A stretch of 16,521 nt of DNA from the IMG/VR virus record IMGVR_UViG_2740892014_000012; one strand, written 5' to 3'. The position numbers were made by a program, and so were the translations under genes. The stretch comes from a virus. Taxonomy: Duplodnaviria; Heunggongvirae; Uroviricota; Caudoviricetes. Below, piece by piece: positions 1,370 through 7,374 of this stretch (position 1 is the stretch's first letter; every line of letters begins with the position of its first letter). The notes below the pieces were generated by a model, which worked only from the letters and a program-made list of their open reading frames with translations, searched no databases and had not been told where the DNA came from.

Positions 1370-1508
1370 TTGTCCTCCTCTTAGCTGCTGAGGGAGTTTG
1401 TGACCGATATATCTGACATGATATTAAGCTCATGGCAGGTACATCTCTTGACTGGTCATAGAGATAAATTTAATGCTGAGAAATGCAGTATTGAATTTAT
1501 CAATTTTT

Positions 1509-4852: not shown

Positions 4853-5143
4853 TTAGTGATTCAGGCCGTTGCCGCGTCCGTCGAGAAAAACTTCCACGAG
4901 CAAATCACGGGTATAAGTGCGCTCGATGCCGCGATGCAGATAAAGCCGTCCGCGTAAATTAGCTGATGCAGTCCAGGTACCATCTTTGTGTTTGACCAGC
5001 ATTCCTGGCATGACCGCACCGCGATTAACGGTCTGCGTTCCGTAATGTTGATGAACCATAAAAACTCCTGCCCGTAAGCTGGGCTGCTGAACATATAGAG
5101 ACTTCTGCGCGTATTCAGGCGGTGGATGGCCGCCGGTTGTCAT
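4853..5143 (-). CDS. Hypothetical protein (96 aa), first ORF downstream of pL, in the kil/cIII position
   Basis: Codon composition looks coding in this frame. No similarity recognised to lambda N, cIII or Kil as recalled. An internal start (MVHQHY...) is possible. Function unknown. Confidence 0.45.
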
Positions 5144-5334
5144 AACTAAGCCGCCTCGTTGAAGCGACTAAGGTATGAAATGTTGAGTTAATTTCAGCTG
5201 GTCACACCGACGTTCACGCGTCCGTTTCACCCCTCGCACTCCCCGAAGCCTGCTGAAATTCAAACTGCGGATCTAAGCGGTCATCGCAACGGTGAATCAG
5301 GTAGTTGCCGTATCGTTGTGTTGTTGCGATGAAC

Positions 5335-5415
5335 TTATTTAAAACTATAGTTGTTTTATCGTCAACAACAAAAGTTGTTTTATTGGTTGTTTTAGATATA
5401 ACTGGTTGTATTTAG
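5335..5415 (-). promoter_or_regulatory. pL-like promoter with OL operator cluster
   Basis: Minus strand reads GTTGTTGACGATAAAACAACTATAGTTTTAAAT: TTGACG, 17 nt, TTAAAT. This is nearly identical to the pR module on the other side of cI (GTTGTTGACTAAAAACAACCATAGTTTTAATC). Repeated GGTTGT(T/A) half-sites in both orientations at 5349..5413. Confidence 0.55.
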
Positions 5416-5505
5416 GATGGATTTATTTTGTGACTTGAATCGCATAGCGATAACTGAAGCGAGGTTATGGTGGTTTTTTTAACGGTGTGTGTGATGAGGG
5501 GAGGG

Positions 5506-5533
5506 CAAAAGAAAACCCGGCACGGTGACCGGG
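5506..5533 (-). terminator. Intrinsic terminator downstream of cI
   Basis: On the minus strand: CCCGG..CCGGG stem (5-bp GC stem, 8-nt loop) followed by TTTTCTTTTG, about 120 nt after the cI stop. Confidence 0.55.
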
Positions 5534-5654
5534 ATTCTTACGCCGTTAGGTAAAGATATTATTGCGGTGGCTTAATATTACTACCTAGAGCAAAGATAGG
5601 AATTAGTTCTTTACTGAATGAGCACAATGCCCAGTTGATAATTTTTAATTGGTA

Positions 5655-6344
5655 CTACCCATGCTTCCTATATGTCTGCGGCATGCTCCCAATAACCTTA
5701 CCGAAGATGAACACCCGGTTCATCTCGTCTTTCTCGATCGGGTCCCACGGTGAGTAGCTTTTGTTATCAGAGATGACCAGCAGCTTATCCTTCATCATTT
5801 GCAGGCGCTTTACATGGGCTGTGTCGTCGTACAGAAACGCATAGATACCATCACCGTCGAAAGATTTAACTGTGATATCAACGAACAGCAGATCACCTGG
5901 TTCGATCGTTCCTGACATGCTGTCACCACGCACGTTAATGATGCGGATATTTTCCGCCTTCCTACCATCGAACATGTGACGAGCATCGTCAAACGAGTAC
6001 TCAACCGAGCGTAGAACTTCTACAAACTCACGGTTGATGACTCCCGGCCCAGCACTGACTTCTATATCAAGAACGTCAATCTTGAAGTATTTGGAATGGC
6101 TGACAGTTGATTGTATTGGTTGCACTGTACTGTCTGACATATTTCCAACGCCAGAAGATAACCATTCTGCGCGCACACCCAAAGCGTTCGCGATCTCCAC
6201 GATTTTAGTTGTTTGATTAGCTTTCCCTGTTTCGATTTTCTGAATAGCAGCCTGGCTAACCCCGACCAAATCCCCAAGCGCCTTTTGTGTAAGGCCTCGC
6301 GCTAATCTGGCTTCTTTAAGTCTTTCTGAGAGTGTTGTTTTCAT
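5655..6344 (-). CDS. cI: cI-type prophage repressor with N-terminal HTH and C-terminal LexA-like S24 autopeptidase domain (229 aa from the proposed start)
   Basis: HTH LTQKALGDLVGVSQAAIQKIETGK; S24 motifs VRGDSMSGTIEPGDLLFVD (Ser) and HVKRL (Lys); candidate Ala-Gly cleavage site in VSAGPG. The ORF-track start at 6410 lies inside the operator/promoter; the ATG at 6344..6342 (MKTTLSERLKEA...) sits 6 nt after a TACATT -10-like hexamer, suggesting a leaderless pRM-type transcript. Confidence 0.85.
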   Translation of the reverse strand: MKTTLSERLKEARLARGLTQKALGDLVGVSQAAIQKIETGKANQTTKIVEIANALGVRAEWLSSGVGNMSDSTVQPIQSTVSHSKYFKIDVLDIEVSAGPGVINREFVEVLRSVEYSFDDARHMFDGRKAENIRIINVRGDSMSGTIEPGDLLFVDITVKSFDGDGIYAFLYDDTAHVKRLQMMKDKLLVISDNKSYSPWDPIEKDEMNRVFIFGKVIGSMPQTYRKHG

Positions 6345-6448
6345 AGTCCAAATGTACAACCAAGGTTTTATTCCATCAAACGAAAATGGTTGTTGACTAA
6401 AAACAACCATAGTTTTAATCTTGATTCAAATTAACCACGGAGGTTGTT
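6345..6448. promoter_or_regulatory. Divergent OR / pR / pRM region
   Basis: Perfect 9-bp inverted repeat ATGGTTGTT-N7-AACAACCAT (6386..6410) overlapping a TTGACT -35 (6393..6398), 17-nt spacer, TAATCT -10 (6416..6421). GGAGG SD at 6437..6441, 7 nt before the cro ATG. Additional GGTTGTA half-site at 6355..6361 (minus orientation). Confidence 0.6.
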
Positions 6449-6679
6449 ATGAACCCAGCTATCAAAACAGCGATCAATATCGTTGGTTCACAAAAGAAAC
6501 TGGGCGCTGCTTGCGAAGTTTCACAGCAGGCCGTCTATAAGTGGCTTCACAACAAAGCAAAGGTATCCCCTGAACATGTCGGCAGCATTGTTACGGCTAC
6601 TGGTGGAGTAGTGAAGGCATACCAGATTCGCCCGGATCTTCCGAAGTTGTTTCCACACACCGAAAAGAACGCAGCTTAA
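6449..6679 (+). CDS. cro: Cro-like HTH regulator (YdaS/Cro family), 76 aa
   Basis: First gene of the rightward operon, divergent from cI; HTH-like segment QKKLGAACEVSQQAVYKW; good RBS. Confidence 0.78.
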   Translation: MNPAIKTAINIVGSQKKLGAACEVSQQAVYKWLHNKAKVSPEHVGSIVTATGGVVKAYQIRPDLPKLFPHTEKNAA

Positions 6680-6691
6680 ATTTCCATTTCA

Positions 6692-6704
6692 CGCTCTTTA
6701 ACAA
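6692..6704 (+). promoter_or_regulatory. boxA-like element (CGCTCTTTAACAA) in nutR position
   Basis: Matches the boxA consensus (rrn/phage CGCTCTTTAACAA) 13 nt downstream of the cro stop. No convincing boxB hairpin follows. Confidence 0.45.
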
Positions 6705-6748
6705 TAAGCAATCAACTTAACAGTCAATTCAAACTAAAGGAGTCAATT

Positions 6749-7288
6749 ATGCAACCACTTACATACCAACAGACTAGCGGATTTAGCCCGACTGCGGTGA
6801 TAAATCGTTCTCAAACAAAACAGGTGCCAGGCCACGAAAAAATCCGTGATGCCGTCCGCGCCTGGTCGGCTGTAGATAATCAGGATGTCGTTGCCACACT
6901 CATTGTGAATGAGTATCTGGAGCAGGGCGGCGGCACCATCGATTTCCCTGATGATGTCAGCCGTGCACGCCAGAAGCTGTTCCGCTTCCTCGATAACAAA
7001 TTCGATTCTGAAAAATACCGAAATAACGTGCGTGAACTGACCCCGGCAATTCTGGCGGTACTACCGCTGGAATATCGCGGTTACCTGGTTGAGCAGGATA
7101 GCTTCATGGCTAGGTTGGCTGAAATGGAAAAGGAACTCAGTGAGGCAAAACAGGCTGTCATTCTCAACGCACCACGCCACCAGAAACTGAAGGAAATTAG
7201 TGAAGGTATTGTGTCGATGTTTCGTGTGGACCCAGATCTGGCTGGTCCATTGATGGCGATGGTTACTACCATGCTGGGGGCGATATGA
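6749..7288 (+). CDS. YdaT-family protein in the cII position (putative CII-equivalent regulator), 179 aa
   Basis: Position immediately after cro; motifs NEYLEQGGG and LTPAILAVLPLEYRGYL resemble YdaT-family proteins as recalled; AAAGGAG RBS 6 nt upstream. Family assignment is from memory, not from a search. Confidence 0.55.
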   Translation: MQPLTYQQTSGFSPTAVINRSQTKQVPGHEKIRDAVRAWSAVDNQDVVATLIVNEYLEQGGGTIDFPDDVSRARQKLFRFLDNKFDSEKYRNNVRELTPAILAVLPLEYRGYLVEQDSFMARLAEMEKELSEAKQAVILNAPRHQKLKEISEGIVSMFRVDPDLAGPLMAMVTTMLGAI

Positions 7289-7374
7289 CAGGTTCAGAAA
7301 TGGCGAAAGCCGGTCTGCTGGAACAGAACCGACTTTCAGGTGCAAATCGTAACACACTCATTGCGGGAGGAATT

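Follow-up and report, generated by a model that had tools for sequence, protein, structure and literature searches.

The gene that follows cro in the lambdoid E. coli prophage described here (positions 6749–7288, plus strand, of a window of 16,521 nucleotides, which is the whole stretch of DNA that was analysed) is very probably the prophage's equivalent of CII, a YdaT-family regulator of lysogeny that belongs to the phi80 type, as judged from its sequence and from a predicted structure of its 179-residue product. This YdaT/CII reading is supported and is already known biology, since the literature equates YdaT with CII: YdaT has been stated to be homologous to phi80 CII and to activate leftward transcription from a promoter that lies between ydaS and ydaT (PMC8630535). 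The identity of the gene therefore adds nothing new, although it confirms that 'toxin YdaT' is a misleading name for a regulator of lysogeny. What can be added is a concrete and testable map of where CII probably acts, consisting of a box inside the gene accompanied by a TAnnnT element and a second box at the nin promoter, together with a corrected start for the replication gene O, for which automatic annotation propagates a probably wrong one.

The immunity and replication region

The window is a lambdoid prophage adjoining icd, and at least 80% of its 5600–9100 stretch is carried by 1487 of 5426 complete E. coli genomes. According to Pfam, PHROG and RefSeq the genes are ordered repressor, cro/YdaS, cII, O and P. 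The CI-like repressor (5655–6344, minus strand) is recognised by Pfam Peptidase_S24 and HTH_3 as well as by its RefSeq annotation. Divergent from it lies a cro-like gene of the YdaS family (6449–6679, plus strand) encoding 76 amino acids, with matches to Pfam YdaS_toxin (E 4e-17), P22_Cro and PHROG 35. On the 3′ side of cII follow an O-family and then a P-family replication gene. Beyond P, a foreign gene block (9252–14597) separates the replication genes from the nin region; it includes an inverse autotransporter of 1421 aa, in which a unit of roughly 120 aa is repeated in tandem in three nearly identical copies, and an alpha/beta hydrolase gene on the opposite strand.

Leftwards of the repressor there is a likely pL with operators of the AACAACC type (around 5340–5420), followed by an inverted-repeat-rich leader of roughly 190 nt (about 5150–5340). 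No N-like ORF of at least 40 aa was found between the repressor and kil (5060–5655). The spacer between cro and cII contains CGCTCTTTAACAA (6692–6704, plus strand), its sole match within the window, which we take to resemble the boxA consensus. The missing N-like ORF, the leader and CGCTCTTTAACAA might point to antitermination that is RNA-based, like HK022 put, or otherwise independent of N.

Family and start of the gene

The gene opens with an ATG at 6749, and a strong Shine–Dalgarno sequence, AAGGAG, can be read 6 nt 5′ of it (6737–6742, plus strand). Relatives back this start: a length of 179–180 aa is kept in 34 homologues of 63–97% identity, in which the N-terminal residues M1, L4, Q7, P14, I18, N19, R20 and Q22 are conserved.

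The earlier note on this DNA had proposed that the gene is not a CII of the lambda type but encodes a YdaT-family protein, and profile searches uphold both halves of the proposal. The match of Pfam YdaT_toxin (PF06254) to residues 67–154 scores 103.4 bits (E 9e-30), the cut-off being 21, and residues 17–179 are matched by PHROG 163, 'CII-like transcriptional activator' (E 6e-67). Pfam Phage_CII gives no match to the protein at E values up to 1, and NCBIfam holds no model for it. Membership of the lambda type was rejected on the lack of a profile match, on a length other than about 97 aa and on the absence of TTGC repeats: there is no perfect TTGC-N6-TTGC site in the window and none with one mismatch between cro and cII, the count of such sites being below chance.

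The closest named counterparts are themselves called cII. The cII gene of phi80 (X13065, JX871397) is 66% identical over the full 179 aa, and genes annotated cII in isolated E. coli phages, among them PhiR34_1, Turner, Perceval and 4A7, are 95–99% identical; in all, the phi80 type is present in 46 of 50,697 phage records. The statement in the earlier note that the role of the protein is untested thus applies to this exact allele only, and its statement that YdaT proteins act as CII equivalents in cryptic prophages is borne out by the analogues of CP-933P and Rac (PMC8630535, PMC9986795, PMC11879457).

Protein architecture

The AF2 model of the protein (mean pLDDT 74) is all-alpha, with helices at residues 29–43, 45–58, 70–82, 88–104, 107–113 and 119–138 and a loop at 59–69, and corresponds to a POU-like HTH with a long alpha2–alpha3 loop, followed by a long helix. 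Foldseek returned the solved YdaT structures 3c4r and 8bt1 as the sole confident matches to this model (probability 1.0, target TM 0.63–0.67), with 26–27% identity over about 120 aligned structure columns. The same two structures were matched weakly by a single-sequence search (E 7e-4), and a profile of the 34 homologues matched 8bt1 at E 5e-8.

Members of the phi80-type subfamily consist of a YdaT core (residues 28–140) to which two extensions have been added, of 27 residues at the N-terminus and about 40 at the C-terminus. The N-terminal extension (residues 1–27; 6749–6829, plus strand) is predicted to be disordered, with pLDDT below 50 for residues 1–26, and is absent from the YdaT proteins of Rac and CP-933P. 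The POU-like HTH DNA-binding domain, delimited by the AF2 helices and the alignment to 8bt1, occupies residues 28–113 (6830–7087, plus strand). Its recognition helix (residues 70–82; 6956–6994, plus strand) carries the motif RxRQKLFR, of which R72, R74, Q75, K76, L77, F78 and R79 are invariant in the 34 homologues, and R79 aligns with the residues that contact DNA in the CP-933P (R60) and Rac (R57) proteins (PMC9986795, PMC11879457). The YdaT of known structure forms a tetramer, has a POU-like HTH and recognises TTGATT-N6-AATCAA (PMC9986795). By analogy, the HTH of the present protein would bind inverted repeats of this type, and its long helix (residues 119–138; 7103–7162, plus strand), which is equivalent to the alpha6 tetramerisation helix of YdaT in the AF2 model and the Foldseek alignment, would mediate formation of a tetramer.

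No part of the subfamily is better conserved than the C-terminal extension (residues 141–179; 7169–7285, plus strand), in which A141, P142, H144, Q145, K146, K148, E149, S151–I154, P162, L168, M169, V172 and M175 are invariant and which has a hydrophobic tail, GPLMAMVTTMLGAI, at its end. It lies mostly outside the Pfam domain and has no ordered counterpart in the structure of CP-933P YdaT (PMC9986795). That these 40 residues serve stability or recognition by a protease is only a guess.

A candidate operator and promoter within cII

On the 5′ side of the gene the DNA is a mosaic: one and the same cII is found behind no fewer than three unrelated cro alleles and spacers, with the junction at the cII ATG or within a few bases before it (6680–6750 in the window; loci L004–L083). 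A cognate site for the protein must therefore travel within cII. Several of the cro alleles joined to cII have a GC hairpin, GCCGCTTAACGGCGGC, over the cro stop codon. A direct repeat, AGTCAATT (at 6722 and 6741), and short palindromes around the start of cII were rejected as candidate sites since they are not conserved in relatives.

Within the gene, conservation at the DNA level is concentrated at the 5′ end. Among 38 cII representatives with less than 90% DNA identity to one another, identity at synonymous sites is 0.68–0.75 in codons 1–24 against 0.52 gene-wide, and rare codons are fixed, such as ATA for Ile18 in 107 of 117 sequences; constraints on translation initiation could account for part of this. 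At codons 17–22 all 38 representatives have a dyad of the form nTGAT(A/T)-N6-nnTCA(A/G), which resembles the YdaT box and reads GTGATA-AATCGT-TCTCAA in the window (6797–6814), where it is a candidate CII operator. Positions T2, G3, A4, T15 and C16 of the dyad are the same in 38/38, T5 in 37/38 and A17 in 35/38. Codon 17 specifies V, M or L yet is always xTG, and codon 21 ends in T in every representative while its first two bases vary. Across the representatives the mean match to TTGATT-N6-AATCAA is 8.4 out of 12, compared with a background of 2.9, and rises to 11 out of 12 in divergent members. Because the 8/12 match of the window's own box is at chance level (two such sites per 16.5 kb), the case for the internal box rests on its conservation and its position.

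At a fixed spacing of 20 nt from the dyad lies a TAnnnT element, TAGTCT in the window (6771–6776, minus strand), whose T, A and final T are present in all 38 representatives although the encoded residues vary. Were this the −10 of a leftward pRE-like promoter, the dyad would be centred at −41.5, the usual position for a class II activator, and transcription would begin near 6764. Rac-SA53, the DNA of which was not alignable here with that of the window, has the same layout, namely TAGCCT, 20 nt and TTGATT-CATGAA-AATCAG over the ydaT ATG. This geometry is unlike that of the YdaT-activated promoter of Rac, which is about 190 bp from the box, and unlike that of CP-933P, where the box was reported downstream of the putative promoter. 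The box bound by Rac YdaT does, however, reach over the beginning of ydaT, and YdaT requires it to activate a leftward promoter in ydaS (PMC11879457). A pRE-like promoter antisense to cro had been suggested in the earlier note as something to look for. Neither cro nor the 5′ end of cII contains a leftward promoter that a scan with the sigma-70 consensus could pick up, as would be expected for a promoter that depends on an activator.

Elsewhere, matches to the tested YdaT box with up to three mismatches number 17 in the window where 13 are expected, and the cro–cII spacer contains a single three-mismatch match, which is at chance level. A target resembling pI is not supported, since no TGA-N10-TCA site of at least 8/12 lies near int and xis in the window, and no near-copy (up to three mismatches) of the phi80 internal box lies elsewhere in 24 kb of phi80, its int/xis region included. 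The number of 8-mers common to the xis region and the 5′ region of cII is likewise at chance level. Upstream of xis, 29–45 nt from its ATG, AGATATATCGGTCACAA (1398–1414, minus strand) agrees with the internal cII box region in 13 of 17 bases, probably by chance; it was rejected as a pI-like site because it lacks both a −10 at a suitable distance and an equivalent in phi80.

A second box before the nin region

The sole perfect TTGATT-N6-AATCAA in the window is TTGATT-ATGAAT-AATCAA at 14863–14880. Its left half forms the −35 of a promoter, TTGATT-17-CATAAT, that faces orf33/ylcH, ybcN, ninE, ybcO and rusA. The centre of the dyad falls near −26.5, and binding there would repress the promoter since the box lies between the −35 and the −10, the geometry of a repressor site. 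Together with the −10 element and a pair of hairpins whose loops are conserved, the dyad makes up a cassette (14863–14960). The hairpins after the box read CACCGGAG-CCTGAACAA-CTCCGGTG and then TAAACGGGGACGTTTA, before orf33/ylcH–ybcN. The record of phage 82 already labels the −35 and −10 as putative and attaches the words 'possible regulator-binding site' to the first of the hairpins.

The cassette is found in DLP12 of BL21, phage 82, PhiR5_1, HK639, KO-TP1, CobraSix, HK225 and phi80. In nine phages or prophages the half-sites are conserved while the 6-nt spacer is free to vary, and phi80 and HK225 have a symmetric change to TTGATA/TATCAA. The cassette occurs in 21 complete phage records, each of them with a phi80-type cII, a count that ignores phylogeny and includes many close relatives among the phages with both elements; phi80 and HK225 have such a cII as well. 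Boxes were seen in two phages in which the cassette is not detectable by BLAST: mEp237 has one of 10/12 just before ninB, and Klebsiella phage 5 LV-2017 has one of 11/12 located 67 nt inside a 600-nt ORF that we take, by its position and size, to be ninB-like.

A second site before the nin region is not described in the YdaT literature searched. It is attractive to consider that CII proteins of the phi80 type govern a conserved regulon of two operators, the degenerate box in codons 17–22 and the perfect box at the nin promoter, a possibility suggested by the sequences to which we give somewhat less than even weight and which that literature does not describe. If true, a tetramer at the nin box would repress the promoter or form a loop to the internal site of cII. 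The nin box would then be a functional counterpart of lambda paQ that works by a different mechanism, and resident YdaT proteins would have a target in DLP12 of E. coli B, where this perfect box recurs.

The junction between cII and O

The earlier note had regarded cII as translationally coupled to O through an ATGA overlap. The overlap is present (7285–7288), and 7285 is indeed where the longest O-family ORF opens, at the ATG overlapping the cII stop from which RefSeq and several phage records begin O (339 aa). The true start is, however, most likely the ATG at 7375, which gives an O gene of 309 aa (7375–8304, plus strand). The match to PHROG 277 begins at residue 31 of the long ORF, and the start of phi80 gene 15 aligns with ATG 7375, just 5′ of which stands GGAGG. 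In most other lineages of relatives the context of the cII stop is GTGA or GTAA, and where ATGA does occur the overlapping ORF is usually just 19–42 aa long. Finally, close E. coli variants differ in the 30-codon extension by about eight non-synonymous and two synonymous changes, as counted by reading. With the O start placed at 7375 and the 86-nt spacer between the two genes filled by a conserved antisense RNA gene, the proposed coupling finds no support, though some reinitiation may occur at 7285.

The antisense RNA is oop-like (7297–7364, minus strand) and homologous to the M3 RNA of phi80, which is annotated on the minus strand as 'homolog of lambda oop RNA'. It has a 5′ hairpin followed by a terminator hairpin (7305–7337) and a U-rich tail. 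Compensatory changes are seen in nine of the 13 stem pairs of the terminator among 41 sequences, and its predicted fold has an energy of −24.1 kcal/mol (z −2.6). A promoter scan places a pO-like promoter, TTGAAT-17-(TG)CATAAT, at 7372–7400 on the minus strand; its −10 overlaps the O start codon and is kept in relatives as CATAAT, CATACT or CATTAT, and the predicted start of the RNA near 7364 aligns with the 5′ end of M3. An Rfam search at gathering thresholds found no match in the window, the oop-like RNA included. In almost all relatives cII is succeeded by the RNA cassette, irrespective of the replication gene beyond it, which is evidence at the sequence level that cII and oop move as a unit between different cro alleles and replication modules.

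Proposed mode of action and alternatives

These elements can be assembled into a scheme of regulation. After infection, CII would be made from the rightward early transcript and would bind the dyad at 6797–6814 in its own codons 17–22. From −41.5 it would activate the leftward promoter with TAGTCT (6776–6771) as its −10, and the resulting RNA, antisense to cro, would extend into the repressor gene, as from lambda pRE. Probably CII would also bind the perfect box at 14863–14880, on the promoter before the nin/Q region; repression there would postpone expression of the late genes, in the manner of lambda paQ. The oop-like antisense RNA beside the 3′ end of cII would be part of the same conserved cassette.

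A DNA-binding regulator of this family need not be an activator of repressor establishment, and might instead be mainly a repressor, or an architectural or looping factor, at the nin promoter or in replication. This is unlikely, but it has some attraction: the one perfect box is flanked by the −35 and −10 of a promoter, which is the geometry of a repressor site, a YdaT tetramer is able to hold two duplexes of DNA (PMC9986795), and the CP-933P paper names YdaT as a repressor equivalent. Set against it are the activation of leftward promoters by both CP-933P and Rac YdaT in reporter assays (PMC8630535, PMC11879457), the name cII given to the phi80 gene in GenBank records, and the spacing of the internal dyad and TAnnnT, which is that of a class II activator.

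Far less probable, and largely refuted, is the notion that the protein is the toxin, and its YdaS partner the other member, of a toxin–antitoxin pair. The names encourage it, since Pfam calls the family 'Bacterial toxin ydaT' and RefSeq the gene product 'toxin YdaT domain-containing protein'. As for toxicity upon overexpression, which the earlier note had mentioned for the family, Rac YdaT is indeed toxic (PMC11879457) but CP-933P YdaT is not, acting instead as a transcription factor (PMC8630535). Lambda CII is likewise toxic when overexpressed without being a toxin (PMC5917428). Moreover, the gene stands in a complete lambdoid immunity and replication module, and its predicted fold matches that of YdaT, a DNA-binding POU-like HTH tetramer (PMC9986795, and Foldseek here). 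That cII is a functionless, decaying remnant in a cryptic prophage is the least credible reading of all: although defective prophages are common in E. coli and P is separated here from the nin region by a large foreign block, no in-frame stop occurs in 118 distinct cII coding sequences, purifying selection is already seen in the strong conservation of its amino acids, near-identical copies sit in phages deposited with named laboratory hosts, and int, xis, repressor, cro, O and P nearby are all intact.

Comparison with known systems

If the gene is taken as the CII-equivalent regulator, its nearest known relative is cII of phi80 (PHI80_49, JX871397; 'cII gene' in X13065). The two proteins are alike in their layout of 179–180 aa and in both extensions. 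In phi80, too, the gene lies between a cro-like and an O-like gene and is followed by the oop-like M3 RNA cassette, and the same dyad is present at codons 17–22. The upstream cro and repressor alleles, by contrast, differ between phi80 and the window, and the ORF overlapping the cII stop ends before gene 15 in phi80 whereas in the window it runs in frame into O.

The YdaT of CP-933P (8BT1), the related 3C4R and the YdaT of Rac belong to the same Pfam family and share the POU-like HTH and the long helix. The recognition-helix motif QKxFR[WF], including the arginine that contacts DNA, is common to the CP-933P and Rac proteins and that of the window. Their genes share the position after ydaS/cro and have at their 5′ ends a box in the TGA-N10-TCA register. 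The protein of the window differs in its 27 extra N-terminal and about 40 extra, conserved C-terminal residues, and its internal box is degenerate (GTGATA/TCTCAA).

Lambda CII, a protein of 97 aa, bears no family relationship detectable as a match, and neither its TTGC-N6-TTGC direct repeats nor a pI-like site was found in the window. The two systems nevertheless have the same gene position, with an oop-type antisense RNA gene beside the 3′ end of cII. The activator sites of lambda pRE lie inside the first codons of cII, and the logic predicted for the window is the same, an activator site over the −35 of a leftward promoter inside the 5′ end of the activator's own gene. In place of the direct repeats of lambda, however, the predicted site of the window is an inverted repeat suited to a symmetric tetramer.
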